This document shows, one piece after another, positions 5,797 through 54,000 of a stretch of DNA of 64,000 nucleotides; within the stretch, counting starts at the first letter, position 1, and every line of letters begins with the position of its first letter. The notes beneath the pieces are model-generated. The model was not told where the DNA came from. It saw nothing but the letters and a program-made list of their open reading frames with translations, and did no database searches. The position numbers were made by a program, and so were the translations under genes. Source of the DNA: Patescibacteria group bacterium (GTDB lineage: Bacteria; Patescibacteriota; UBA1384; UBA12157; JAENIV01); contig JAMCZU010000035.1 in assembly GCA_023485405.1 (NCBI GenBank), positions 1,519 to 65,518 on the forward strand, written 5' to 3'.

Positions 5797-6655
5797 TATT
5801 CCTCCTGGTAAATTTAATTGTTTGCCAAATTAAGATTACAAAAATTATTATAATCAAAGCTACCCAGATATATTCGGGGATCATTTTGGTTTTAGCGACG
5901 ATTAAGTTAGTTAAATTGTTAAAAGCGGTTGACATTTTCATTTCATATGAGGAACTAATCGACGTTTTACCTAGGAGTGTCAAAACCACAATCAAAATAC
6001 CCATCCCACCAAAAATGATAGCTGAAATAAGATGAGTTGAATGAATGTAGTATTTTTTGCCAAATAATTTCCAGGCATAAATTTTACCTTGGAGTAATTT
6101 CGAACGTGAAAAATCGTAACGATCCCAAAAATAAGACATAAAAACGAGTGGTGAAACCATACCCAAAATATAAGTTAAACTTAAAAGAATTGAATAAAGC
6201 ATTTTTCCAGATAAAGCGCTAACCGTCAACACGCCAATCAGAACCGGTGTGCAACACGAACTGGCCGCGCCGGAAAGCACACCAAGCAGAAAAACTGACA
6301 GTGGATCGCTCTTTTTAAGATTAGGATTATGCGTCTTAAAAGGCATAGGAATAGTTTTACCAAAAATGGCCAGAACTGCCAGAATAATCAAAAACATTCC
6401 ACCAAGTAAAAAGACTTCGTCATGATAATGAGAAATAAGTTTTGCCAAGGCCGTTAGGCCTAAACTTATCGGTACTAAAACCACTGCCAGACCCAAAAAG
6501 AAAATAAAGGTCATTAAAAGAATCTTTGATTTTTGCTTAAAAGCCGAAGCAAAATAAGCTGGAAAAATAAAAGTGACACAACAAGGTGCTAAAAGCGCTA
6601 AAATTCCTCCCAGGAACGATGCGACCACTGATGCCCCCAGTAATGTTGGACTCAT
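5780..6655 (-). CDS. CcdA/DsbD-family membrane thiol-transfer protein (cytochrome c biogenesis-like) with paired Cys motifs (APCC, SSCCTP)
   Basis: Polytopic membrane protein with two cysteine-containing TM motifs positioned as in CcdA/DsbD_2. Encoded in an operon with the TlpA-like gene. Confidence 0.6.
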   Translation of the reverse strand: MSPTLLGASVVASFLGGILALLAPCCVTFIFPAYFASAFKQKSKILLMTFIFFLGLAVVLVPISLGLTALAKLISHYHDEVFLLGGMFLIILAVLAIFGKTIPMPFKTHNPNLKKSDPLSVFLLGVLSGAASSCCTPVLIGVLTVSALSGKMLYSILLSLTYILGMVSPLVFMSYFWDRYDFSRSKLLQGKIYAWKLFGKKYYIHSTHLISAIIFGGMGILIVVLTLLGKTSISSSYEMKMSTAFNNLTNLIVAKTKMIPEYIWVALIIIIFVILIWQTIKFTRRNNEKSK

Positions 6656-6670
6656 TTTTATCCCTCTGTG

Positions 6671-6922
6671 TTAATTCATTTTATTGTATAGCCAGACGAA
6701 AAGCCAAACAATCAGATAGGTGACAATGTCTATTAGGACCAAACCGATGATGGCTGAAGTAAAAGTAATCTCTGGCTTTGACGTGATAGTTCCGAAATGA
6801 ACAAGATAGCCGGCAAAGTTACTGTAAATACTTGGCAGTACAGCGGCAAAGAAGGTACAGATGAGATAAAGAATTGTCATCCAAACGACGGCTACTTTGG
6901 CAATTTTTGTTCCGTTGAGCAT
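6671..6922 (-). CDS. Small membrane protein (83 aa), hypothetical
   Basis: GGAG RBS. Two or three hydrophobic helices. Lies in the operon between copA and the ccdA-like gene. Confidence 0.5.
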   Translation of the reverse strand: MLNGTKIAKVAVVWMTILYLICTFFAAVLPSIYSNFAGYLVHFGTITSKPEITFTSAIIGLVLIDIVTYLIVWLFVWLYNKMN

Positions 6923-6955
6923 TTTTTCTCCTTTCTATTTTTTTAATTAAAACTC

Positions 6956-9376
6956 CTATTTAGTTTCAAGTTGACAAGTAGTTGTTTTGTTACACGATGT
7001 TTTATTAATCATATTTTCTTGCTCGGTCATATTTGAACTTAGCCGGGCAAACTGAAGGAAAAGCAAAACAAAAATGACGATCATGGCATATGGGGCAATT
7101 TTCGAAAAATAATTAATTTTAGCTGGTCTGAAATACTTAATTAAGAGTGAATTACTGACAACCGAAATAGAACTTAGGGCCATTGCTAAACCAGCTAATT
7201 CTGGTCTTAAAACCAAACCAAATTCCATAAAAACCCGAGCAGCAATGGGAATACCAATGACATTATATAAAAGAGCAAAAACCATATTTTGTTTTATTTT
7301 TGAAAATGTTTCTTTGGCTAATTCAATGGCGGTGACAACATCGTTAAGATCATTTTTAATAATCACAATACCGCCGGTTTCCATCGCCACATCAGTGCCA
7401 GAACCCATGGCAATGCCCAAATTGGCTTGAGCCAAAGCGGGGGCGTCGTTAATACCATCGCCGACCATGGCGACAATACGACCATTTTCTTGAAGTTTTT
7501 TAACTTCATTGGCTTTATCTTCGGGTAAAACTTCAGCTAAAACATTAGTGATACCAGCCTCTTTGGCAATCGCTTGAGCAGTTCGGACGTTGTCGCCAGT
7601 AATCATATAAATTTCAATCCCTAGATTTTGAAGTTTTTCAATTGCTTCTTTGGTCGTTTCTTTGATTGTATCAGCCACCGCAATTGCACCTAATAAATCT
7701 TTTTCGGAAGCGATGATCATTACGGTTTTACCCTGTTCCTCAAGCTTAGCCACTTCCTGCTCGATAGAGTTAATTGGCAGATTAACAATATCGGTAATTA
7801 GTTTTCGATTCCCGAAAAAATATTTTTTCTGATTGATTATACCTTCAACGCCGTGACCGGCAATGGCTTTAAAATTTGAAATTGATGAAAGTGTGATATT
7901 TTTTTCTTGGGCAAACCCGTAAATTGCTTCGGCCAGTGGGTGTTCTGAAGATTTTTCTAAACTGGCGGTAATTTTTAAAATTTCATTTTTATTTAAATTG
8001 CCAAAAGTTAAAATATCGGTTACCTGAGGTTTTCCTTTAGTTAAAGTGCCGGTTTTATCAAAAATAATGGTGTTAATGCGGTTGGCGGCTTCTAACGGTT
8101 CGCCACCTTTAATTAAAATACCGTATTCGGCGCCTTTACCCGTACCAACCATAATGGCGGTGGGAGTGGCTAATCCCAAAGCGCAAGGACAAGCAATTAC
8201 AATCACGGCCGTAAAAGTCATTAGTGAAAAAGAAAGTCCGGCGTTAAAACCAATAAACCAAACTAAAAAAGTTAAAATGGCCAAACTAATGACGGCTGGG
8301 ACAAACCAGGCCGAAATTCTATCGGCGAAAGTTTGAATGGGCGCTTTTGATCCTTGAGCTTCTTCGATTAAGCGAATAATTTGGGCTAGGGTAGATTCTT
8401 CACCGACACGTTCGGCTGTAAATTCAAAACTACCTTGTTTATTAATCGTGGCGCCGATCACAGTATCGCCTGGGTTTTTTTCAACCGGAATACTCTCACC
8501 GGTGATCATTGATTCATCAACTGCCGAAGAGCCTTTGGTGATTTTGCCGTCAACGGGAATTTTCTCGCCAGGACGAACTAAAATAGTATCACCAGCGACA
8601 ACTTTATCAATGGGCAAATCCAAAGTTTTACCATTGCGAATTACTCGAGCGGTTTTAGCCTGCAAACCCATTAGTTTTTTAATGGCATCGGAAGTTTTGC
8701 CTTTAGCCTGCATTTCTAAGTATTTGCCCAATAAAACAAAAGTAATCAAAAAAGCGGCAGTTTCAAAGTAGAGATCGGGAATTTTTTGGCTGGCTAGACC
8801 AAGTAGCGAACGATTGGTCAAAGCAAAGTTGGTAAAATTAAATAAGCTATAAAAATAAGCCGCCGAGGTGCCGATGGCAATCAGGCTATCCATATTGAAA
8901 GTCTTCATCTTCAAAGAAGACCACATCCCTTTATAGAAGCCGGCGCCAATAATAAATTGAACCGGGGTGGCTAAGATTAAAGAAATAATACCAAAATAAG
9001 GTGGTAACGACATTCCTCCGGGCAGCCATTTGAAGAAATCCAAGAACATGAAATAAAGCATTGGCAAACTTAAAATTAAGCTAAAAATAAACTTTTTCCG
9101 CATGGCTGAAATTTCAAATTCTTGCTTTTTTCTTTCAAACTCGGCGTCTTTCTCGTTAATAGTTTCCGCTTTGTAGCCAGCTTTTTTAATTGCTTGGATA
9201 ATGTCTTTGGAAGAAGTGGATTTTTCGTCAAATAAAACAATTGCTTTTTCGGCGGCAAAATTGACATTAGCTTGACTAATTCCCGGCAATTTTTTAATCG
9301 AACGTTCAATGATTAAAGCACAAGAAGTGCAATGCATCCCCGAAAGTGAGAGTGAAATTTTTTTAGGACTATTCAT
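6956..9376 (-). CDS. copA: Cu(I)-translocating P1B-type ATPase with an N-terminal HMA domain
   Basis: GMHCTSCA metal-binding domain, CPC transmembrane motif, DKTGTLT phosphorylation site, [10 protein letters not shown] hinge. Confidence 0.9.
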
Positions 9377-9377
9377 T

Positions 9378-9593
9378 TTAACCTTCGTTTAATTCCGCTT
9401 TATAACCGGCTTTTTTAATTGTTTCAATAATTGTTTCAGGAGAAACATTATCTTCAGTTTTGACAAAGCCGCTGCTTGTTTTTGAATCAACCCTTGATTC
9501 TAAGACTCCTTCAGTGTCGTCGAGTTCCATTTGGATTATTTTTTCGCAAGAACCACAGTGCATGCCCGAGATTTTAAATTTTAATTCCTTCAT
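9378..9593 (-). CDS. copZ: Copper chaperone (HMA domain, GMHCGSC)
   Basis: 71-aa ferredoxin-like HMA protein located immediately upstream of copA. Confidence 0.85.
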
Positions 9594-9659
9594 AAATATC
9601 TCCTTTCATTTATTAAACCTACTCCTACGGTATAGGTAATTAGTAATGTTGTCAAGTGT

Positions 9660-11372
9660 TTAATTAACGATAATTCTACCTCTGACGGAACCCATTGAAC
9701 AAGTAATATAATAGGTGCCTTTTTCTTTGGGGGTAAAATCAAAAACAATTGTTTTATCTTTTTCAATAAATTGAGGTCTGTCCACCAGTCCTGGTACGGT
9801 GATAGTACTCATACAACCTCGACCGTCTTCTTTGGCCTCAACTTGAAATCTCACCGGTTTTCCGAATTGCACGGTAAATTCTTTGGGAGAAATATCATCT
9901 TTGGGAGAAATGAAAGTTGTTGTAATCACTTGAGCATCTGGTGGAAGAGGAGGAATTTCGTTGTTACTTTTAGTAGGAGTCGGTGTAGCAGAACTGTTTA
10001 AAGTAATAGTTTTAGGGTCTTCATTTTCTACCACTGTAAATTTTCCGGTGTACATTCCCATAGAGCAAGAAAACTTTATTTCACCGAATTCCGTTGGCGT
10101 AAATGAAATTATGTTTTCACCGGCGGATAAGAATTTTTTTACATTAATTTTAGAAGCGACAATACTAGCGGCGCAAGAACGGGCATCTTCAGAAGTAATA
10201 ACCCATTTAACCGGAATATCTTTTTTGATCGTAAAATTATTGGGGGTGTAACCATAACTATTTTGAGTCATTTTAACAATTTGAACGCCGTTTTCGATTT
10301 TTACATTTGGATCGTCTTTGGCGCTAACAGTACTATTATTAAACGAAATTCCTCTCCAGCCAGTCAGGTTAAACCCGTTGGAAATATTAAGAATGGCTAA
10401 AAAAATTACCAACACACCGGCAAATTTAAAGAATTTTTTCGCAAAAGCGCCTTTGATAACTGAGGTAAGACCTCCGATTCCCAAAAGACCCGGGGCAGTG
10501 CCAAGAGCAAAAACACCCATAATGGCGGCGCCAGACCAAAAATTCCCCGTACTCATGGCGTAAAGTTGCATTGCCTGAGTAAAACCGCAGGGTAAAAAGA
10601 AGGTTAAAGCACCGGTCACAAGAGAATTAGTGTGACTGTATTCTCTTTCATGTCGTTTTTTAATTCCAAAAAGTTTTGCTAACCCAGAAGGTAAAGTAAA
10701 ACCGGTGCTCGAAATACGGGGGAATAATTCGGTTAATTGAATCCCTAAAATCAGCATAAAAATACCAACAATAATAGTTAGCGCTCCAAGCAGTGAGCTG
10801 GAAAGCTGAAAAGCTTTGCCAATAGTCCCAATTAAACCACCAAGAATAAAGTAAGAGAGAATTCTACCTAAATTAAAGAAAAGATGAGGTCGAAATTTTT
10901 GAAAGGCACTTGCTTCGGGGTGTTTTTCCGAGTGACGCGCCGATATGCCTAGGATTAAGCCTCCTACCAACGCCATACAGGTTGAAACACCGGCGGTTAA
11001 ACCCACTAATAATACGACGATTAAACTCGAAGGGTTATTAGTATTACCAAAATTAAGATTGGTAAGATTAAATTTTTTTGCAACCAAATACAAAATCGCC
11101 AAAATCACTAAAGCAATGCCTAAATCTTTGTATTCGGTGGGATTTTTACTAATCCAGCTTTTTTCCTCACGGCCGATTTCATAACCAGCTTCATAAATTG
11201 CGTCAGCAACTTTATTCATAGTAGCTGGATCATTTAAGAAGAATTCCGCTTGTTTCTTTTTATAACTGACAGCAATACCTTTAATTCCGGGGATTTCTTT
11301 TAATTTTCCTTCAATTAAGAGTTCACAAGATCGGCAATGCATTCCTTTGACGGGGACAATGGTTTTTCCCAT
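9660..11372 (-). CDS. Three-part fusion protein: N-terminal HMA domain (GMHCRSC), a polytopic permease with conserved TM cysteines (DsbD_2/MerT-like), and two C-terminal cupredoxin-like beta domains (CSMGMYTG, CSMGSVRG)
   Basis: Domain order read directly from the translation. The C-terminal half is Thr/Pro-linker rich and carries two repeated C-x-M-G motifs. Confidence 0.6.
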   Translation of the reverse strand: MGKTIVPVKGMHCRSCELLIEGKLKEIPGIKGIAVSYKKKQAEFFLNDPATMNKVADAIYEAGYEIGREEKSWISKNPTEYKDLGIALVILAILYLVAKKFNLTNLNFGNTNNPSSLIVVLLVGLTAGVSTCMALVGGLILGISARHSEKHPEASAFQKFRPHLFFNLGRILSYFILGGLIGTIGKAFQLSSSLLGALTIIVGIFMLILGIQLTELFPRISSTGFTLPSGLAKLFGIKKRHEREYSHTNSLVTGALTFFLPCGFTQAMQLYAMSTGNFWSGAAIMGVFALGTAPGLLGIGGLTSVIKGAFAKKFFKFAGVLVIFLAILNISNGFNLTGWRGISFNNSTVSAKDDPNVKIENGVQIVKMTQNSYGYTPNNFTIKKDIPVKWVITSEDARSCAASIVASKINVKKFLSAGENIISFTPTEFGEIKFSCSMGMYTGKFTVVENEDPKTITLNSSATPTPTKSNNEIPPLPPDAQVITTTFISPKDDISPKEFTVQFGKPVRFQVEAKEDGRGCMSTITVPGLVDRPQFIEKDKTIVFDFTPKEKGTYYITCSMGSVRGRIIVN

Positions 11373-11387
11373 AGGTTTTACCCCTCT

Positions 11388-11660
11388 TTATTTATTGGCC
11401 ATTTTAGAGACTTTTAAAATTTCTTGAATCATTTCCTGTTTTCTTTTTTCATTACTAGTTTTCATGGCATTTTTAAAACAGGAATTAAGATGGCTTTCCA
11501 TTAACATTTGATGAGCGGATTTTAGGAGGCCAATCACCGCGAGATTTTGCTGCATAATATCAATACAGTACTCATTGCTTTCAAGCATTTTAATGATTTT
11601 TTCAATGTGACTTTTGGCCTTTTTAAAATTAATTAAAGTTTTTTCATGTTTTGAATTCAT
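11388..11660 (-). CDS. csoR: CsoR/RcnR-family copper-sensing repressor
   Basis: The conserved C...H...C ligand triad is spaced as in CsoR (YC...H-x3-C). It is the first gene of the copper operon and has an AAAGGA RBS. Confidence 0.8.
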   Translation of the reverse strand: MNSKHEKTLINFKKAKSHIEKIIKMLESNEYCIDIMQQNLAVIGLLKSAHQMLMESHLNSCFKNAMKTSNEKRKQEMIQEILKVSKMANK

Positions 11661-11678
11661 CTCGTCCTTTCTTCGACG

Positions 11679-11693
11679 TCTACCATAGGTAGA
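11679..11693. promoter_or_regulatory. Candidate CsoR operator: perfect palindrome tcTACCataGGTAga just downstream of the predicted minus-strand promoter (TTGACA-N18-TATTAT) of the csoR operon
   Basis: 6-3-6 inverted repeat located 19 nt upstream of the csoR start codon. A related copy is at 12780-12793. Confidence 0.5.
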
Positions 11694-11784
11694 GGTGAAT
11701 TTATAATAACAAACCTTTTATATTATTGTCAACAAACATATTACACAATCTTTTTGTGCTATACTATAAGTAGAAGGGACTAAA

Positions 11785-11931
11785 ATGATGGATTATGATT
11801 CCATATCTCAAGGTATGATGGGTGGTAATGTTGGCGTGGCCTCACTTTTTATGTGGCTAAGCTACATTTTAATTATTGTTCTTCTTGTGCTTGGGATTAT
11901 GGCACTTTGGAAATATATTAATAAAAATTAA
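11785..11931 (+). CDS. Small membrane protein (48 aa), hypothetical
   Basis: AAGGGA RBS and an extended -10 TGcTATACT upstream. A single TM helix. Converges with the neighbouring gene, with a 4-nt overlap. Confidence 0.35.
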   Translation: MMDYDSISQGMMGGNVGVASLFMWLSYILIIVLLVLGIMALWKYINKN

Positions 11932-12770
11932 ACCCCACAACTGCCACCGCCAGTGACGAAGGGCAGATCTTTAACTTGCGATCTAATATAGGCAAAGCCT
12001 TGTTGGCTCGAAAAGTTTTTTCCAAGAATAATTTTAGGGTTAAAGCCTACCAAATTTTGACTATTCTCTTTTAAATATTGATCAATTGTTAAATAATCAT
12101 TGGGAAACCAAAAAGTGTTAAGGATTAAAGCATCTTTATAAATTTGTTCTTCATCTAAGTTTTGCGCCGCGGCTAGTTCTAAAAAACCCAGCATGGCCAT
12201 GCCATGATTGCAATCCGGAAAATAAGTGGAGTTGTTGCAACAGGGCCGATAAATATTTTTAGCCATTTCTTCCACCATTTTTTGTTGTCCAGACGTCAGC
12301 GTAATAAAATTATGTTTTGAATAATGATCCATGGCTTGACCTCGAGAGAGAGACCAGCCGCCAGTAGAGGCAAAATTAGCCGTTTTGCCATTTTGGGTCA
12401 TTGGTCCTTTCTCTAGAATTTCATTTTTGTTACTCAAACCAAAAGCCCAAAAGAAATTTAAAAGATAGCTGGCGTTGTCTTTGGTGATAACAATATTAGA
12501 GCCGTTGTCTTTTAGAAGGCGAACCATTCCTTCTTTTGATTCAATTTTTCCTTGGTCAATGACGCCTTCTTTGAGCATCATTTGACCGAGGTTATTTAAT
12601 CTAACGGGAATAATGGTTTCATTTAGAGATAAAACAGTCTTATTTTGCGCAATTAAAGTGAGTTTTTGGCTAATTTTTTGCCAACTATTGGTAGCGTTTC
12701 CAATTAATATAATAGTAGCAATAAGTCCGAAGAGAACAAAAAGAGCAGATTTATTTAAATATTTTTTCAT
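11928..12770 (-). CDS. Secreted or membrane-anchored Cys-rich protein (CC...C.H cluster PCCNNSTYFPDCNHGM; C-terminal GGGSCGV). Possibly CsoR-regulated.
   Basis: N-terminal signal anchor. The second TACC-N3-GGTA box overlaps the -10 region of its TTGACA promoter. Confidence 0.55.
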   Translation of the reverse strand: MKKYLNKSALFVLFGLIATIILIGNATNSWQKISQKLTLIAQNKTVLSLNETIIPVRLNNLGQMMLKEGVIDQGKIESKEGMVRLLKDNGSNIVITKDNASYLLNFFWAFGLSNKNEILEKGPMTQNGKTANFASTGGWSLSRGQAMDHYSKHNFITLTSGQQKMVEEMAKNIYRPCCNNSTYFPDCNHGMAMLGFLELAAAQNLDEEQIYKDALILNTFWFPNDYLTIDQYLKENSQNLVGFNPKIILGKNFSSQQGFAYIRSQVKDLPFVTGGGSCGV

Positions 12771-12779
12771 TAATGACCT

Positions 12780-12793
12780 ATACCAATGGTAAT
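12780..12793. promoter_or_regulatory. Second candidate CsoR operator (aTACCaatGGTAat) in the divergent region between the Cys-rich protein gene and the second Cu-ATPase gene
   Basis: Same TACC-N3-GGTA core as the box at 11679-11693. Confidence 0.45.
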
Positions 12794-12856
12794 GGTCGCT
12801 GTAGTGCTTGTCAATTTTAGTTGGTTGTTCAAAGTTAAATTTGTTAAAATTAATGT

Positions 12857-14899
12857 ATGGAACACGAAATGCATCATGATATGCAAAAAATGAGTCATAT
12901 GGATCATGAGGCAGCTATGACTAATCCGCAAATGGCCAAAGAGATGGAAAAGGATATGCGGCGTCGTTTTTGGATCTCTCTGGTTTTATCGGTGCCAATT
13001 TTTCTTTATTCTCCGGTTGGCGTGAACTTACTAAAAATTCATTTACCAAGTCCTGTTCCGGTTAATTGGTTGCTCTTAATTTTGACCACGCCGATTGTTT
13101 TTTGGACGGGGTCAATTTTTACGGTTGGTGCTTACAGCGCGCTTAAAAACAAGAAACTCGATATGTCGGTTCTGATTGCCACTGGTGTTTTGACTGCTTA
13201 TTTATTTAGTGTCTATCTGACTATTACTTCTAGTAGTGAAACTTTTTACGAAGCAGCCGCCTTGTTGGTCACTTTTGTTTTATTTGGTCATTGGATGGAA
13301 ATGCGTTCAAGAAGGGGAACTTCCGATTCTCTTAGAGCTTTATTTGATCTTGTGCCGCCGCAGGCACATGTTTTAAGAAATGGTAAAGAGGAAATTTTGC
13401 CGAGTGCGGAAATTATTAAAGGAGATATTATAATTGTTCGTCCGGGAGACAAGATTCCGGTAGACGGCGATATTATTGAAGGCGAATCGTCGGTTGATGA
13501 ATCTTTAGTTACTGGTGAATCAATCCCTGTGGCCAAAAAAATTGGCGATAAAGTTATTGGCGGATCGGTTAATCAAACTGGTGAAATTAAATTTCGGGCA
13601 ACCAAAGTTGGTTCAGAAACAGTGTTAGCTCAAATTATTTCGTTGGTTGAAAAAGCTCAAAATTCCAAAGCGCCAGGACAAAGAATTGCCGATAAAGCGG
13701 CGGCTTATCTTGTGGTTTTAGCGATTGGTTCGGGGTTAGTGACTTTTTTTGCTTGGATTTATTTTGGCCAAGCCGACTTAGTGATGGCTTTAACTTTTGC
13801 GGTTTCAGCGGTCGTGATTGCTTGCCCCGATGCTTTGGGGTTGGCCACTCCCACGGCAGTGGCAGTCGGCACGGGGATAGGAGCTAAGCATAATGTTTTG
13901 ATCAAAGATGCAGCTACTTTAGAAAATGCCTCTAAAATTAACGCGATTTTGCTTGATAAAACTGGCACCTTAACTGAAGGAAAACCAAAAGTAACGGATA
14001 TTATTGCTTTTGAAGGTTTTAGCCAGACGGATATTTTAAAGTACGAAGCAGCGGTTGAATCAGGCTCAAATCACCCCTTAGCTAAGTCAATTATCGAAAA
14101 AGCGGTGGCGCAAAAAATAAATATTCCCCAAAAAACAAGTTTTGAATCAATAGCAGGCTTGGGTCTTAAGGCAGTGGTGGATGGAAAAACTATCAATGTG
14201 GGTAAAGAAAAACTGTTGCAAGAAGATAAAGTTGCAACCGATTTAGCCAAAGACGAAATGGAAAAACTAGCAAGTCAAGGTAAAACCTTAAGTTTAATTG
14301 CCATTAATGGCAAATTGGCCGGAATGATTGCTTTAGCCGATACCGTTAAATTGTCAGCTAAAAAAACTATTACTCAATTTAAAAAAATGGGCATTGAACC
14401 AGTCATGATTACGGGTGACAATGACCAAGTGGCCAAAGCAGTGGCGAAAGATTTAGGAATTGAGAGGTTTTTTGCCGAAGTTTTACCGAGCGAAAAAGCA
14501 GATTTTGTTAAAAAATTACAAGATGAAGGAAAATTTGTGGCAATGGTGGGTGATGGTATTAATGATGCGCCGGCGCTGGCTCAAGCAAATATTGGCATTG
14601 CCATTGGGGCAGGCACTGATGTCGCCATTGAAACCGGCAGTATTGTTTTAATGAAGTCCGATCCTTACGACATTATCTTAGCCATCATTTTAAGCAAAGC
14701 AACTGTTGGTAAGATGAAGCAAAATCTTTTTTGGGCTTCAATTTACAATATTTTAGCTATTCCCATTGCCGCCGGTGTTTTTTATAATTCTTTTGGTTTA
14801 ATTTTACGGCCGGAAGTGTCTGCTCTATTGATGTCCGCCTCATCTATAATAGTAGCGACGAATGCCGTTTTACTTAAAAGAATCGAGGCAAAATTATAG
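12857..14899 (+). CDS. P1B-type heavy-metal ATPase of CopB-like architecture. It has a His/Met-rich N-terminus, no HMA domain, and CPD in place of the usual CPC/CPH TM motif.
   Basis: DKTGTLT and [10 protein letters not shown] are present. The N-terminus reads [17 protein letters not shown]. The TM6 motif reads [14 protein letters not shown], read directly from the DNA. Confidence 0.85.
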
Positions 14900-15087
14900 C
14901 TTCAACCTGTGGATATCTTTTAAGATTTAGACCTCTTTTGGGGCTATTTTCAAGGTTTAAAGTCTCATTCTTACCTTAAAATTATGTTTTCCTCTTGACA
15001 AAAGAGAAGCCCCTTCTGATAATGAATATGTAACCTTTGAATAAGGTTAAAAATATCCCCAATCGGGGTAGGAAGGAGGTGATTTAA

Positions 15088-15288
15088 ATGGCTTATTCAG
15101 TCCAGTCAAAAAAATCCGGCGAAACCTACTATCTTCACTCGAAAGATGTGACTTTACGTGGTGGTCGTCAGCAAACTATCTACTTTTTTGCTCGTACCGA
15201 AAAAGAAGGTGCAATGGATGAATTACCAGAAGGCTACGCAGTAATGGAGAACAGCCGAACTGGTCTTCCAATGCTTAAGAAAGCTTAA
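15088..15288 (+). CDS. Small hypothetical protein (66 aa)
   Basis: Strong GGAAGGAGGTG RBS. Followed by the hairpin ctcaagagagccc...gggctttcttgag. Confidence 0.5.
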   Translation: MAYSVQSKKSGETYYLHSKDVTLRGGRQQTIYFFARTEKEGAMDELPEGYAVMENSRTGLPMLKKA

Positions 15289-15415
15289 AGTAGCTTATAT
15301 CGAGGGAAACTCAAGAGAGCCCAAAATGGGCTTTCTTGAGTTATCTCGGATCGAAGGCTTGATTTTTTTCGAGTTTTGTGTTAAACTATAAGTTGAATTT
15401 TTAGATGGAGATGTT

Positions 15416-16819
15416 TTGAAAAGATCTGAGCTTTTTTTTACTTTTTTGCAAATTCCCGTTGATTTGGCAATGATTGTTGCTTCTTTTGTGATAGCTTATA
15501 AATTTAGAACTTTTTTTGAATTTGTACCAGTTGTCTATGTTGAACCATTATTGGATTATTTAAAATTTGTGCTCATGACTTTGCCAATTTGGTTCGCGGT
15601 TTTTGTTTTTGCTGGTCTTTATACTTTAAAGAATTATCAGGGTCGCCTGCAGGAATTGGGTAAAATTTTGGTCGCGGTCTCGGCGGCGATTGCGATTCTT
15701 TTAGCCTGGCTTTTTCTTTCACGGACTTTCTTTTTTTCAAGGTTAATTATCATCTATGTTTGGCTAATTGCCATTGTACTAGTGACTTTTGGTCGAAGCT
15801 TGATCCATTTTATCCAAAGATTTCTTTATCGTTTTAGTATAGGTATTCATCGAGTTATTATTTTAGGCGAAAATTCCTCATCACGTTTTATTATTTCAGA
15901 ACTCAAAAATAACAAAAAACTAGGTTATAAAATTGTCAAAATTATTGACGAACAAGGAATTGAAAATTTAGAAAGAATTTTTGCCAAAAATCCGGCTGAC
16001 GAAATTATTGTGGCTAATCCTCATATTGGTCAGACAAAAATTGCGGAAGTTTTGGAATTTTGTCGGGCTCATCAAATTGGTTTTAAAATGACACCCGATT
16101 TATTCTTAGTTAGATCTTCTCATGTTGATGTCAAAACCCTCGCTGGTGTGCCGATTTTGGAATTTAATCGCACACCATTGGACGGTTGGGGCCGAATTAT
16201 TAAAAGATTGGTGGATATGATCGGATCATTCATCATATTAATAATTCTTTCACCGATAATGTTGCTGGTTGCTCTTGGGGTTAAATTTACCTCCAAGGGT
16301 TCAGTTATTTACCGTCAAAATAGAATTGGTTTTGAAAATAAACTTTTTTCTTTTTGGAAATTTCGTTCAATGAAAGCGGAATATTGTACCGGTGAAAATT
16401 ACGGTGGTAAGGAAGCTCAACAAGTTTGGGAAAAATTGAATAAAAAAAATGAAGCTGATGGTCCAATTTTTAAGATTAAAAATGATCCGAGGCTGACGAC
16501 CTTTGGTAAATTTATTCGCAAAACCAGTCTTGATGAACTACCTCAACTTTTTAATGTTCTAAAAGGACAAATGAGTTTGGTGGGGCCTCGGCCACCTTTG
16601 CCAAACGAAGTGGCTCAATATAATAAATTTCAACGTCGTCGTTTGGGAGTAAAGCCGGGTATGACAGGACTTTGGCAAGTCTCTGGGCGATCGGAGCTGA
16701 ATTTTGATGAATGGGTTAAACTCGATGTTTATTACATTGAACATTGGTCTTTATGGCTCGATTTTCAAATTTTCTTAAGAACTATTTGGGTGGTGATTCG
16801 AGGTCGCGGTGCGTATTAA
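15416..16819 (+). CDS. Polyprenyl-phosphate sugar phosphotransferase (WbaP/EpsE family). TTG start.
   Basis: The C-terminal bacterial sugar-transferase domain includes PRPPLPNEV and GMTGLWQVSGRS. There are N-terminal TM helices. A GGAG RBS precedes the TTG start. Confidence 0.85.
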   Translation: MKRSELFFTFLQIPVDLAMIVASFVIAYKFRTFFEFVPVVYVEPLLDYLKFVLMTLPIWFAVFVFAGLYTLKNYQGRLQELGKILVAVSAAIAILLAWLFLSRTFFFSRLIIIYVWLIAIVLVTFGRSLIHFIQRFLYRFSIGIHRVIILGENSSSRFIISELKNNKKLGYKIVKIIDEQGIENLERIFAKNPADEIIVANPHIGQTKIAEVLEFCRAHQIGFKMTPDLFLVRSSHVDVKTLAGVPILEFNRTPLDGWGRIIKRLVDMIGSFIILIILSPIMLLVALGVKFTSKGSVIYRQNRIGFENKLFSFWKFRSMKAEYCTGENYGGKEAQQVWEKLNKKNEADGPIFKIKNDPRLTTFGKFIRKTSLDELPQLFNVLKGQMSLVGPRPPLPNEVAQYNKFQRRRLGVKPGMTGLWQVSGRSELNFDEWVKLDVYYIEHWSLWLDFQIFLRTIWVVIRGRGAY

Positions 16820-18650: not shown

Positions 18651-19988
18651 ATGAAACGAACTCGTTTTGTTGATGGAATTTATTTTTGGAAAAAAGAAAA
18701 AAAGAAAAAAAAGCGAAAATACTTAGTTCTACTAATTTTAATACCAATTTTTGTGAGCTTCTTTTTTGTTTCAAAAATTAGCGCGGCCTATATTTTACCG
18801 AATCTCAATCTTTTAACCTTATTTCGAAATGGTAAATTTTTAGTGCTTTTCCAAAATAATTCTGAGCTTCGATCTTCTGGTGGTTTTATTGGTTCATATG
18901 CAGTGGTGGAAGTTAAAGATTTTGAAGTTAAAAATATTACTTTTAATACCAATATTTACGCTTTAGATAACGCGTTTGCGCAGAGGGCTTATGTGGCGCC
19001 GCCGGCTGGGTCAATGCAAAGAATGCTCAACGAAAAAACTTGGGCGCTGCGCGATTCTAATTATGATCCTTCTTTTTCTGATGCCGCCTCTGACGCCACC
19101 TTTTTTTACGAACAAGAAACGGGCGATAAAATTGATGGCGTTGTTGGTATTAATGCTAAATTAATGGTTGATTTATTGAAAATTACAGGGCCAGTAAAAC
19201 TGGAAAAATCTAATGTCACAATTTCAGCTGATAATTTTTATTTTGAGACTCAATCACAAATTGAAAGAGTTTACTATCAAAATCCGGAAAACTGGGTTTT
19301 AAATGAGCCAAAATCATTTTTGAAAGAAATGTATCCAACTATCTTAAGCCAGGCGTTAAAAGATAAAGTGCAACTTTTAAATCTGGTTAAAAATGAACTG
19401 GCGACCAAAGAAATTGTTTTTTATTTTAAAGATTCAGCTAAACAATCATTAGTTCAAAAACATAATTTAGCGGGGACAATTCCTACCAATCAAGAGTTAG
19501 GAAATTCTGATTATCTTTATTTAAATAGTAATAGTTATTCGGGTAATAAATCGTCTCTTTCAATGAAAGAAGATATTGATTATCGTCTAACTACAACCGA
19601 GGATTACGGTCCAAAAATGTATCAAGCCGATCTTAAATTTAGTCGGATTCATAGTGGTTCATACGAATGGCCCGATGGTAAGAATTTAGATTGGTTAAGA
19701 GTTCTAGTGCCTCAAAATGCCCAGTTTTTACAAGCTAAAATTAACGAAAAAGATGTTAGTTCTAAAGTTGAAGTAGGACAAGATTCTGAGAAAAATTATT
19801 TTGGCACAGAAATTACGACCGAGCCGGGACAGGCGAATATTATTGAAATAAGTTATCTTATTCCTTATAACTCGGATTATCATCTTTTGGTTCAAAAACA
19901 ACCGGGTCAAAATGATGAAAATTTAACCGTCACTTTGGACGGTAAAATGCTTTTTGACGGTCTTTTAAACCGAGATCTAAGGATCTAG
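18651..19988 (+). CDS. DUF4012-family protein, a common component of EPS/capsule loci. Contains the oligo-A tract KKEKKKKKRK.
   Basis: Signature LRSSGGFIGSY. N-terminal TM helix. Co-located with the sugar transferase, GT4 and Wzz genes. Confidence 0.6.
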   Translation: MKRTRFVDGIYFWKKEKKKKKRKYLVLLILIPIFVSFFFVSKISAAYILPNLNLLTLFRNGKFLVLFQNNSELRSSGGFIGSYAVVEVKDFEVKNITFNTNIYALDNAFAQRAYVAPPAGSMQRMLNEKTWALRDSNYDPSFSDAASDATFFYEQETGDKIDGVVGINAKLMVDLLKITGPVKLEKSNVTISADNFYFETQSQIERVYYQNPENWVLNEPKSFLKEMYPTILSQALKDKVQLLNLVKNELATKEIVFYFKDSAKQSLVQKHNLAGTIPTNQELGNSDYLYLNSNSYSGNKSSLSMKEDIDYRLTTTEDYGPKMYQADLKFSRIHSGSYEWPDGKNLDWLRVLVPQNAQFLQAKINEKDVSSKVEVGQDSEKNYFGTEITTEPGQANIIEISYLIPYNSDYHLLVQKQPGQNDENLTVTLDGKMLFDGLLNRDLRI

Positions 19989-51020: not shown

Positions 51021-54000
51021 ATGGCAAATCCCAAAAGAATGAATTTAAACGCAATCAAAGAAAAAAATAAAGTAATTGATTTTGATGCTTTAAAAATTTC
51101 CATTGCCTCCCCGGACCAAATTTTAGATTGGTCTTATGGCGAGGTTTTAAAGCCAGAAACAATCAACTATCGGACTCAAAAACCGGAAAGAGACGGTCTT
51201 TTTGATGAAAGAATTTTCGGACCAACCAAAGATTGGGAATGTTATTGCGGTAAATATAAAAAAATTCGTTACAAAGGTGTTATTTGTGATAAATGTGGGG
51301 TGGAAGTAACGCGCAGCGCCGTCAGGCGCGAAAGAATGGGCCACATTGATTTGTCAGTGCCGGTCACTCATATTTGGTATGTCCATGGTGTGCCTAGCAT
51401 TTTGGGCTTAGTTTTGGATTTATCAACTTCAGAACTGGAAAGAGTGATTTACTTTGCTGGTTTTATGGTTTTGGAAATTAATGAAGATATTCGAAAGAGC
51501 GTCTTAGATCAATTGGAAAAAGAATATAGCGAAGCTAAAGGGAAAGCAGCTGACAATAACATGGATTTAGCTAAAATTGAAGTGGCTTATAAAGCCACCC
51601 GTCAAGAAATCCTTTCGCTAGTACCAAAAATGATTTTAACCGAAAGTAAATATCAAGATCTATCTTTACGTTACGGTCAAATTGTTAAAGTGGGCATTGG
51701 CGCCGAAGCGATTTATGAATATCTAAAAAAGATTGATCTTGCCGAGCTCCATGAAAGTCTTAATAAAGAATTAGAACAAGCCACCTCCGTTAATACCCGA
51801 AAGATTTTAAGACGATTAAAACTTTTAGCGGAAATGAAAAATGCCGGTATTAGACCGGAATGGTTAATTATGACTAGATTACCAGTCTTGCCACCAGATC
51901 TTCGACCAATGGTCCAGCTTGATGGTGGTCGTTTTGCGGCCTCCGACTTAAATGATCTTTATCGTCGAGTGATTAACCGCAATAATCGTTTAAAAAGACT
52001 GCTTTCTTCGGGTGCGCCGGAAGTAATTTGTCGCAACGAAAAAAGAATGTTGCAAGAAGCTGTTGACTCTTTGGTTGATAATTCCGCTCGTCGTGGTCGC
52101 GCGGTTTCCGCCGGGGCAGCTGCTCGAAAACTACGTTCTCTTTCAGATATGCTTCGGGGTAAGCAAGGCCGTTTTCGCCAAAACTTATTGGGTAAACGGG
52201 TAGATTATTCTGGTCGTTCAGTTATTGTCGTTGGACCAAACTTGAAATTAAATCAATGTGGTTTACCTAAAATTATGGCTTTGGAACTTTTTAAACCTTT
52301 TGTGATTTCACGACTGATTAATGAAGGTCATGTTCATAATGTTAAAAATGCAACTCGTTTAATTGAACGAGGTGAAGCCATTGTTTGGGATATTTTGGAA
52401 AAAATTACCAGCAATTATTATGTCATGCTTAACCGTGCTCCTACTTTGCACCGCTTAGGTATTCAAGGTTTTCAACCGGTTTTAATTGAAGGTAAAGCGA
52501 TTCAAGTTCATCCGTTAGTCTGTTATGCTTTTAACGCTGATTTTGATGGTGACCAAATGGCCGTTCATGTACCTTTATCGGTCCAGGCTAAAGAAGAAAC
52601 CAGCCAAATTATGCGTTCTTCGCACAATATCTTAAAACCAGCTTCTGGTGAACCAGTGGTTACTCCTCGTTTGGATATTGTTTTTGGCGCTTATTATTTA
52701 ACAACTCTGCAAGAAGGTGCTTTGGGTGAAGATAAAATTTTTGCTTCTAAAAATGAAGCCATTTTAGCTTATCATCAAGGTTTTGTTCATGTTAGAGCCA
52801 AAATCAAAGTTTATTTTAGAGAAAAAAATGGTCAAGGTCAGTTAATGGAAACTTCTATTGGTAGAATTTTATTTAATAACATTTTACCTGATGGAGTTTC
52901 TTATCAAAATGTGGCCATGGATTCTAAAACTTTGAAAAAATTAATTACAGGTGTATTTGATCGTTTTGGTACGGATGTCACAGCAGAATTAGTGGATAAA
53001 ATTAAAAAAATTGGTTTTGATTATGCCGGTCTTTCTGGTATGACCATTTCAGTAGCAGATATTATTATTCCTTCTTCTAAAGATGGTATTTTGAAAGCCG
53101 GTGATAAAGTTTTAGATGAAATTGATAATCAATATTTAAGAGGTTTAATTACCGATAACGAAAAAGAAATTAAAACCATTGAGCTTTGGAATGGCATTCG
53201 TTCCGAGCTTGAAGGTGAAATGCTTAAAGAATTTGGTCTTAATAACCCAGTTTATTTAATGATTACTTCTGGGGCACGAGGTTCAGTGGCGCAGTTGACG
53301 CAAATGGGTGGAATGAAAGGTCTAGTGGTCAACCCAGCCGGTGAAATTATTCAAGTTCCAATTCGTTCAAACTATAAAGAAGGTTTATCGGTGATTGAGT
53401 ACTTTATTTCGACTCACGGTGCTCGTAAAGGTAAATCAGATACTTCTCTTCGAACTTCTGATGCTGGTTATTTAACCCGTCGTTTGGTTGATGTCGCTCA
53501 TGATATGGTCATCACCACTCATGATTGTGGCACCACTACTGGTTTTGAGCTTAATCGTGAAGAATCTGAATCTTTGGGTGAAAAGCTTAGTACCAGGTTG
53601 GTTGGCCGAATTTCTTTAGAAGATATCAAAGACAAAAATAAAATCATTGTCAAAAAGGGTGAAGAAATTAATGAAGAAAAAGCCGTTTTAATTGAAAACA
53701 GTGGCATTGAAAAAGTCATTGTTCGATCGGTTTTGGAGTGTCGGGCTGAAAGAGGTCTATGCCAAAATTGTTATGGCCGAGATTTGGCCACGGGTAAACT
53801 GGTGGAAATGGGTACCGTCGCGGGTATTATTGCCGCTCAAGCGATTGGTGAACCGGGCACCCAGTTGACAATGAAAACCTTCCATATGGGTGGTATTTCC
53901 GGTGAAGATATTACTTCCGGTTTGCCTCGGGTTGAAGAACTATTTGAGGCACGCACCCCGCGAGTACCAGGAATTTTATCAGAAATTAGCGGTATTGTCA

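Follow-up and report, generated by a model that had tools for sequence, protein, structure and literature searches.

The closest known counterparts of the system reported here are the CsoR repressors of Mycobacterium tuberculosis, Bacillus subtilis and Streptomyces lividans, in whose classical regulons csoR is autoregulated, separate operators precede csoR and copZA, and the repressor site overlaps the core promoter. The characterised sites of copper-responsive CsoR proteins are pseudopalindromes with G/C tracts that follow the pattern TAC-X9-GTA, measure 15 bp across and are bound by two tetramers (PMC3902906), and type 1 and type 2 operators have been defined as one or more G/C tracts flanked by TAC...GTA, ATATACCCCTNAGGGGTATAT being an example (PMC12724321). 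The operator of the CsoR-family protein TTHA1953 from Thermus thermophilus, TACNNTACNNNNGTANNGTA, consists of two tandem TAC and two tandem GTA elements with no continuous G/C stretch and is bound by an octamer (PMC10318464). Here we report on a 64-kb stretch of a metagenome-assembled Patescibacteria (candidate phyla radiation, CPR) genome, contig JAMCZU010000035.1, hereafter the window, in which three 21-bp sites are probably the operators of a CsoR-family repressor encoded at positions 11388-11660, designated CsoR1, and would together constitute a copper-responsive regulon.

CsoR1 belongs to the same PF02583 family as the three classical proteins and has the same x-C-H-C triad and the same Tyr and Glu residues in the second shell; its regulon is likewise laid out with an apparently autoregulated csoR and with separate sites before csoR and copZA, and here too the proposed repressor site overlaps the core promoter. 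What sets the locus apart is the operator, which is built from four ACC/GGT triplets phased every 6 bp, unlike the G/C-tract boxes of the classical systems, and the addition to the regulon of an HMA-DsbD-cupredoxin fusion and of a cysteine-rich (Cys-rich) protein that is specific to the CPR. Judged from sequence, the logic of the regulon is most likely ordinary, namely control of the CsoR type by copper, and the architecture of its operator is most likely previously undescribed. CPR bacteria are uncultivated and the regulation of their transcription is almost undescribed, and the locus offers a testable pair of cis-element and regulator that is conserved across many CPR classes.

A 21-bp motif in the promoters of copper genes

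The preliminary description of this DNA had proposed that two TACC-N3-GGTA palindromes define a CsoR regulon. Both palindromes were confirmed: a perfect 6-3-6 inverted repeat, tcTACCataGGTAga, lies at 11679-11693 with its core TACCATAGGTA at 11681-11691, and the second copy, aTACCaatGGTAat at 12780-12793, contains the core TACCAATGGTA at 12781-12791, which can also be read as a 5-1-5 palindrome. The two cores are the only matches to TACC-N3-GGTA in the window, where 0.36 would be expected; two or more matches occurred in 6 of 100 dinucleotide shuffles, an enrichment that is marginal when taken alone. On alignment of both sites, each core was seen to sit inside a 21-bp motif, ACC-N3-ACC-N3-GGT-N3-GGT, for which a search allowing at most one mismatch returned three matches in the window (9617-9637, 11676-11696 and 12776-12796) against 0.01 expected, a number that none of 100 shuffles reached. 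All three sites fall in promoter regions of copper-related genes. The only other near-matches in the window, with 10 of the 12 defined letters at 19590 and 43649, are inside long open reading frames (ORFs) and, with 0.8 expected, are at chance level. The concern voiced in the preliminary description, that the palindrome might be frequent at random, touches the short pattern with its marginal excess, the 21-bp pattern being far above chance; the outer ACC/GGT triplets and the third site, which precedes copZ-copA, are absent from that account.

Operator 1 (11676-11696; ACCTCTACCTATGGTAGACGT on the minus strand) lies in the csoR promoter, contains the palindrome at 11679-11693 and matches the motif at 11 of 12 letters, its promoter-distal outer triplet being CGT and not GGT. 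Operator 2 (12776-12796; ACCATTACCATTGGTATAGGT, also on the minus strand) lies in the promoter of the Cys-rich gene, contains the second palindrome and matches at all 12 letters, while operator 3 (9617-9637; minus-strand sequence ACCTATACCGTAGGAGTAGGT; 11 of 12 letters) is located at an internal copZ-copA promoter, in the 66-bp gap between the gene of the 570-amino-acid HMA-DsbD-cupredoxin protein and copZ. S. lividans likewise has three CsoR operators (PMC3902906). The operator consensus is tACC-TAT-ACC-tat-GGT-nnn-GGTa, and with its flanks, TACCTATACCTATGGTATAGGTA, the motif can be described as nested dyads, TAC-X5-GTA plus TAC-X17-GTA, or alternatively as two interleaved TAC-X11-GTA dyads with a 6-bp offset. 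Among published operators only that of TTHA1953 is built in a similar way, and both can be read as interleaved dyads; phasing and offset are, however, 5 bp in the TTHA1953 operator, which totals 20 bp with TAC-X9-GTA units, as compared to 6 bp, 23 bp and TAC-X11-GTA here. A literature search for the motif string matched only unrelated primer sequences. The CopY cop box, TACAnnTGTA, was considered and rejected, as its single match in the window, at 52946, is distant from the copper genes and no more than expected by chance.

Position of the proposed operators relative to predicted promoters

For the csoR operon a sigma-70 promoter is predicted on the minus strand at 11703-11732, TTGACA-18-TATTAT, with TG upstream of the -10 and an 11/12 match. 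Operator 1 lies 6 nt downstream of this -10 hexamer, and the 15-bp palindrome within it falls at about +4 to +18 of the predicted promoter, close to, if not exactly at, the +2 to +16 of the preliminary description. The predicted promoter of the Cys-rich gene reads TTGACA-17-TACCAT on the minus strand (12814..12786; 10/12 match), its -10 being the inner half of operator 2, which bears out the earlier claim that the second palindrome overlaps the -10 of this gene. At the predicted copZ promoter (9627-9655, minus strand), TTGACA at 9655..9650 is followed by 12 nt and then by operator 3, whose inner TACCGT (9632..9627) occupies the -10 position with a 17-nt spacer (TTGACA-17-TACCGT).

Two layouts can be distinguished over these sites and those of orthologous loci. 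The type A layout, seen at csoR in the window and in most orthologous loci, comprises TTGACA, a spacer of 17 or 18 nt and a TATAAT-like -10, with the operator 1-14 nt further downstream (mode 3), and the operator would therefore cover the putative transcription start. In the type B layout of the copZ and Cys-rich promoters, TTGACA stands exactly 12 nt before the operator, as it does in 10 of the 13 sites outside the csoR upstream regions; the sequences of this spacer have diverged though its length is constant, and this arrangement lets the inner TACCnT fall at the -10 position, 17 nt after TTGACA. TAnnnT retains the three best-conserved -10 positions of sigma-70 promoters.

Conservation of the motif upstream of csoR orthologues

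A scan of one genome per species yielded 80 loci encoding a CsoR with 69-91% identity to CsoR1, of which 79 were usable. These loci span many CPR groups, among them Berkelbacteria, Saccharibacteria-labelled bins, Falkowbacteria, Nealsonbacteria, Dojkabacteria, WWE3 and Wirthbacteria, and the gene directly after csoR is in most of the 80 a fusion of the 570-amino-acid type. A perfect 12/12 motif was found at most 200 bp upstream of csoR in 63 of the 79 loci and a motif with at least 11 of the 12 letters in 72; over all 572 kb of these loci there are 72 perfect 21-bp matches against 0.05 expected, nearly all of them at the same promoter position. The exact TACC-N3-GGTA is present in 34 of the 79 orthologous sites, and conservation is lower at the T and A next to the inner triplets than at the outer ACC/GGT triplets, so that the core singled out in the preliminary description is real but the conserved unit is the 21-bp motif. 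In the site frequency table the core columns are inflated because the core served to select the sites; figures free of this bias are the upstream counts (72 of 79), the 572-kb totals and the shuffle test on the window. Seven loci (L001, L002, L007, L010, L018, L021 and L031) have, like the window, a further site in the interval that separates the DsbD-cupredoxin gene from copZ. A few of the orthologue bins are labelled Gammaproteobacteria, Altiarchaeales or Didemnitutus, probably as a result of mis-binning.

A second set of 80 loci from metagenomes, independent of the first and 465 kb in total, retrieved with the Cys-rich protein family and rich in genes for copA- and copB-type ATPases and for CsoR paralogues, contained the motif in two loci only, and these two are the only loci of the set that have the upstream region of a close CsoR1 orthologue (74% and 78% identity) on the contig. 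No other regulator gene is conserved in the csoR orthologue loci. The 21-bp pattern is specific enough to be of use in annotating copper regulons in CPR metagenome bins.

In four loci (L006 at 3931, L014 at 3913, L068 at 3935 and L075 at 3948) the csoR promoter carries a lone ACC-N9-GGT unit whose centre is a C or G tract (e.g. ACCTACCCCATAGGT) in place of the double motif. Such sites fit the interleaved description of the motif without proving it, and could represent intermediates between the classical CsoR boxes and the phased motif.

Properties of CsoR1 and of the paralogue CsoR2

The csoR gene (11388-11660, minus strand) encodes a protein of 90 amino acids that matches PF02583 (Trns_repr_metal/DUF156), an all-helical domain of about 90-120 amino acids, with E = 1.1e-16 and 61.4 bits, the cut-off being 22.8, and whose best sequence match in the PDB is M. 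tuberculosis CsoR (2hh7; E = 7.5e-12). Y31, C32, H57, C61 and E80 of CsoR1 align with Y35, C36, H61, C65 and E81 of the latter, and all five positions are conserved among the 22 CsoR1 orthologues aligned. Tyr35 and Glu81 of the M. tuberculosis protein are second-shell allosteric residues, and CsoR1 thus possesses, in Y31 and E80, the second-shell Tyr and Glu, both invariant among the aligned orthologues. In the W-X-Y-Z scheme of the family, x-C-H-C is the Cu(I) signature, to which C32, H57 and C61 of CsoR1 conform, whereas CstR persulfide sensors have x-C-x-C with no His at Y and RcnR/InrS proteins have H-C-H-H or H-C-H-C, in which the N-terminal His is needed (PMC8643695). CsoR1 belongs to neither of these other types: its His57 is invariant and its neighbours are copper genes and not genes of sulfide detoxification, and an N-terminal His at the W position is not conserved. 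The gene is encoded with, and upstream of, copZ and copA, and has an operator before its own start. On the strength of the ligand pattern and of the copZ, copA and HMA domains nearby, copper is most likely the effector.

Other Patescibacteria encode a paralogue, CsoR2, which belongs to the same family with 25-43% identity to CsoR1 and is often found beside a Cys-rich gene and an ATPase of the CPH or CPD type. Its helix alpha1 is classical (RRLKIxEGQxRG) and so is its operator, TATACCCCCnGGGGGTATA, situated between the -35 and the -10, CsoR2 promoters carrying a classical G-tract box such as TATACCCCCAGGGGGTATA. No CsoR2 is encoded near the copper genes of the window, where the Cys-rich gene carries an operator of the CsoR1 type instead. 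Copies of CsoR2 were noted in loci L082, L084, L090-L092, L094, L117, L119, L120, L125, L134, L138, L143, L147, L153 and L159; most are x-C-H-H (YCID...ENHLSTHV), a His replacing the second Cu ligand Cys, and have no N-terminal His of the RcnR type.

A model of copper-dependent regulation and its alternatives

We propose that without copper CsoR1 would bind each operator, most likely as two tetramers by analogy with other CsoR proteins, and would thereby block RNA polymerase. At the csoR promoter the bound repressor would cover the transcription start, whereas at the copZ-copA and Cys-rich promoters CsoR1 and the sigma factor would compete for the same bases, the inner TACCnT being also the -10. 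Cu(I), bound by C32, H57 and C61 and coupled through Y31 and E80, would release CsoR1, and this release would induce csoR together with the HMA-DsbD-cupredoxin gene, copZ-copA and the Cys-rich protein. What the sequences show are the sites, their conservation and co-occurrence with CsoR1, the promoter geometry and the ligand residues; binding, its stoichiometry, copper as the inducer and the transcription starts are what we infer. The CsoR regulon put forward in the preliminary description is upheld in substance by the occurrence of the motif in 72 of 79 species, by the ligand set of the regulator and by the promoter positions of the sites, albeit with three sites and not two.

Several observations weigh against this model. 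With no G/C tract and with spacings of X5/X17 or X11, the consensus, tACCTATACCtatGGTnnnGGTa, falls outside the type 1 and type 2 operators, and for the same reasons the likeness of the palindromic core to known CsoR boxes, asserted earlier, had to be abandoned; since a G/C tract is a property of the known operators and not of the protein family, it is the case for a classical CsoR box that is lowered by this and not the case for a CsoR. CsoR1 has N11-F-K-K14 in helix alpha1 at the positions where its paralogues and the CsoR proteins of the PDB have RLKR or RLxR, with LINFKKA(K/R)SHI in 22 of 22 orthologues, and S. lividans CsoR needs its RLxR motif to bind DNA (PMC3902906). With this helix, and with neither a G/C tract nor TAC-X9-GTA in the operator, the binding mode is not simply transferable from known CsoR proteins, and none of the solved CsoR-family structures matched to CsoR1 is described as a DNA complex. 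The ligand pattern, moreover, does not fully fix the effector, as InrS, with H-C-H-C, senses Ni (PMC8643695). In most other CPR lineages the Cys-rich gene adjoins a different CsoR paralogue and not the motif, and the window scans cover 64 kb of the genome. Finally, the regulator is 69-91% identical across CPR classes, a level suggestive of horizontal spread of the copper cassette within the CPR, and the 80 loci are therefore not fully independent; despite this possible non-independence, the 12 core letters have remained unchanged amid flanks and spacers that have diverged. On balance, the co-occurrence of the motif with this type of CsoR and the parallel between an altered helix alpha1 and an altered operator argue that it is CsoR1 that recognises the new motif. 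The locus offers a natural variant with joint changes on both sides of the contact, from RLxR to NFKK in the protein and from a G-tract box to a phased ACC/GGT array in the DNA, and could help to resolve how CsoR tetramers read DNA.

The sites might be CsoR1 operators and yet respond to an effector other than copper, such as Ni or Co, persulfide or another thiol-reactive species, which we consider unlikely. The operator nearest in build belongs to TTHA1953, a two-Cys redox sensor that controls sulfur oxidation and no copper sensor, InrS has a C-H-C core and yet senses Ni, and the regulon holds proteins of a thiol-redox type in the DsbD_2 fusion and the CcmH-like Cys-rich protein; CsoR1, on the other hand, is a C-H-C protein encoded beside copZ and copA. 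Its invariant His57 is missing from persulfide sensors of the CstR type, the N-terminal His at the W position of RcnR/InrS is not conserved in it, and the second-shell Tyr and Glu of copper-sensing CsoR proteins are present. The regulated genes, furthermore, are copZ, a CPC-type copA and those of HMA-domain proteins, whereas no sulfurtransferase, persulfide dioxygenase or Ni/Co exporter appears near the copper genes in the gene list of the window. It is less probable still that another transcription factor, with its gene elsewhere in the genome, binds the motif, whose position at csoR would then reflect co-regulation and not autoregulation. The dissimilarity of the operator from known CsoR boxes would fit such a factor, as would a view of the genome limited to 64 kb, but the motif accompanies 72 of 79 CsoR1 loci and in the 80 loci of the Cys-rich set is found only beside two CsoR1 gene starts; paralogues with an RLxR helix have classical TACCCCCnGGGGGTA operators before their own genes, so that the change to NFKK accompanies the change of operator, and neither another conserved regulator gene in the loci nor a CopY-type cop box nearby offers a candidate.

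We attach very little weight to the reading of the palindromes as RNA hairpins in 5' leaders, acting in stability, attenuation or termination, and not as DNA operators. Sites 1 and 2 do fold, at -11.1 and -9.3 kcal/mol, with z = -3.7 for site 2, yet of the 84 sites only 15 have full complementarity between the two spacer triplets that the stem would need to pair and 25 have none, whereas the ACC/GGT letters do not vary, a pattern of protein recognition and not of pairing. Site 3 folds no better than shuffled sequence, no Rfam match was found in 6000-16000, and in the type B layout, where the operator overlaps the -10, the 5' half of the hairpin would not be transcribed; the RNA-element reading was rejected on these grounds. 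That the matches are mere chance in AT-rich DNA has next to no probability left: it could draw on the marginal enrichment of the short TACC-N3-GGTA, of which 6 of 100 shuffles contain two, but is refuted by the three 21-bp matches in the window where 0.01 are expected and by the 72 perfect matches, against 0.05, at nearly always the same promoter position in the orthologue loci.

Within the model of CsoR1 as a copper-responsive repressor, a more far-reaching proposal is advanced only tentatively and may well prove wrong. The CsoR1 lineage might read the 6-bp-periodic array of four ACC/GGT triplets through its NFKK alpha1, the operator supplying the -10 at two of the three promoters, and the regulon might couple copper efflux to a CPR-specific thiol-redox pair of the envelope (the HMA-DsbD_2-cupredoxin protein together with the CcmH-like Cys-rich protein) whose role would be to repair thiols damaged through copper catalysis or to prevent such damage. 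The Scs/DsbD systems of Proteobacteria are the comparison for such repair or prevention.

The Cys-rich protein

The gene at 11928-12770 on the minus strand encodes a Cys-rich, membrane-anchored protein of 280 amino acids, for which no Pfam or NCBIfam match was found. Like CsoR1, it is 100% identical to an NCBI protein assigned to a 'Patescibacteria group bacterium', both being encoded there on one contig of 77 kb. Its family has more than 5,600 homologues at E <= 0.001, nearly all unnamed and from the CPR. Invariant residues include C177, C178, C187, H189, M191 and M193, within IYRPCCxNSTYFPDCNHGMAMLG, as well as C278 in the C-terminal GGGSCGV. Part of the predicted structure resembles the CcmH fold, and a Foldseek search returned no significant PDB match. 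CcmH, the thiol reductase of System I cytochrome c maturation, has LRCxxC, a motif absent from the Cys-rich protein, which has RPCCxNSTYFPDCNHGM instead and, unlike CcmH, extra domains over its 280 amino acids and the C-terminal GGGSCGV; no sequence relationship to the CcmH family was detectable.

In other CPR loci the neighbours of the Cys-rich gene encode membrane-anchored thioredoxin-like CxxC proteins, membrane proteins of the DsbD/CcdA type, DUF1573 proteins and the DsbD_2-cupredoxin fusion, and one homologue (P0066) has a precomputed match to a VKOR domain (PF07884). The Cys-rich protein could, at low to moderate confidence, be a partner of the DsbD_2 protein outside the cytoplasm, with a role in thiol redox or in the binding of copper, and the locus gives a first functional handle on its family as copper-linked, extracytoplasmic and probably engaged in thiol redox chemistry. 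Just upstream of many Cys-rich genes lies one for a small protein that crosses the membrane several times and has ...(K/E)NCC or ...DCC at its C-terminus (L113, L118, L121, L125, L127, L136 and others); no Pfam match was found for the L118 copy, which was the one tested, and the protein may be a further conserved partner of the copper/thiol module.

Membership of the Cys-rich gene in the CsoR1 regulon of the window is credible from its own operator and from comparison with the closest relative, L001, where a 12/12 site lies at the identical position, 5 nt before the Cys-rich ATG, with the same promoter geometry; the gene is also found downstream of csoR in L057, L088 and L110. The motif was sought upstream of Cys-rich homologues in general and this was rejected: in the 80 metagenome loci the gene mostly lies within an operon and the motif is missing, and membership of the regulon is therefore lineage-specific and not family-wide.

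Other genes of the copper locus and the second P1B ATPase

Downstream of csoR on the minus strand, a gene at 9660-11372 encodes the 570-amino-acid membrane protein, in which the domain search identified an HMA domain, a DsbD_2 (CcdA-like) domain and two cupredoxin-like domains, and which is predicted to share one transcript with csoR. We know of no functional characterisation of such an HMA-DsbD_2-cupredoxin fusion, which may be a candidate for copper-linked transmembrane electron transfer. It is followed on the same strand by copZ (9378-9593), coding for an HMA copper chaperone of 71 amino acids as identified by domain search, and by copA (6956-9376), coding for a CPC-type P1B-1 Cu(I)-exporting ATPase with an N-terminal HMA domain. 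Divergent from csoR, a plus-strand ORF (11785-11931) of 48 amino acids encodes a single-pass membrane peptide, MMDYDSISQGMMGGNVG...; in front of it is an extended -10 (TGcTATACT, 11757-11765), the ORF and the convergent Cys-rich gene overlap at their stop codons, and a homologue was found upstream of csoR in L009.

The gene at 12857-14899 on the plus strand, divergent from the Cys-rich gene, encodes a second P1B ATPase with a His/Met-rich N-terminus, a feature that it shares with its orthologues. Transmembrane segment 4 (TM4) of this protein contains CPD (window positions 13805-13852) instead of CPC or CPH, with YN and MSASS retained in TM5 and TM6; CPD is present in all five orthologues for which the TM4 region was recovered (L091, L118, L127, L146 and L159), and to our knowledge no CPD subtype of P1B ATPases has been described. 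In other loci, genes for this type of ATPase are mostly neighbours of the Cys-rich gene and the CsoR2 paralogue.

Both genes flanking operator 2 had been assigned to the regulon in the preliminary description; this is credible for the Cys-rich gene, whereas control of the second ATPase gene by operator 2 is no more than a possibility. Operator 2 is oriented and spaced for the minus-strand promoter, no plus-strand promoter was found before the ATPase gene at the scan threshold and none that is credible overlaps operator 2, and a classical CsoR box is likewise absent upstream. A weak TTGGTT-18-TAAAAT found by hand in the 12797-12856 region would start transcription at the ATPase ATG, with operator 2 at about -60 to -80. 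No Shine-Dalgarno sequence precedes the first ATG, and the mRNA is possibly leaderless; a strong GAGG-N5-ATG is located 60 nt inside the ORF, at Met21.

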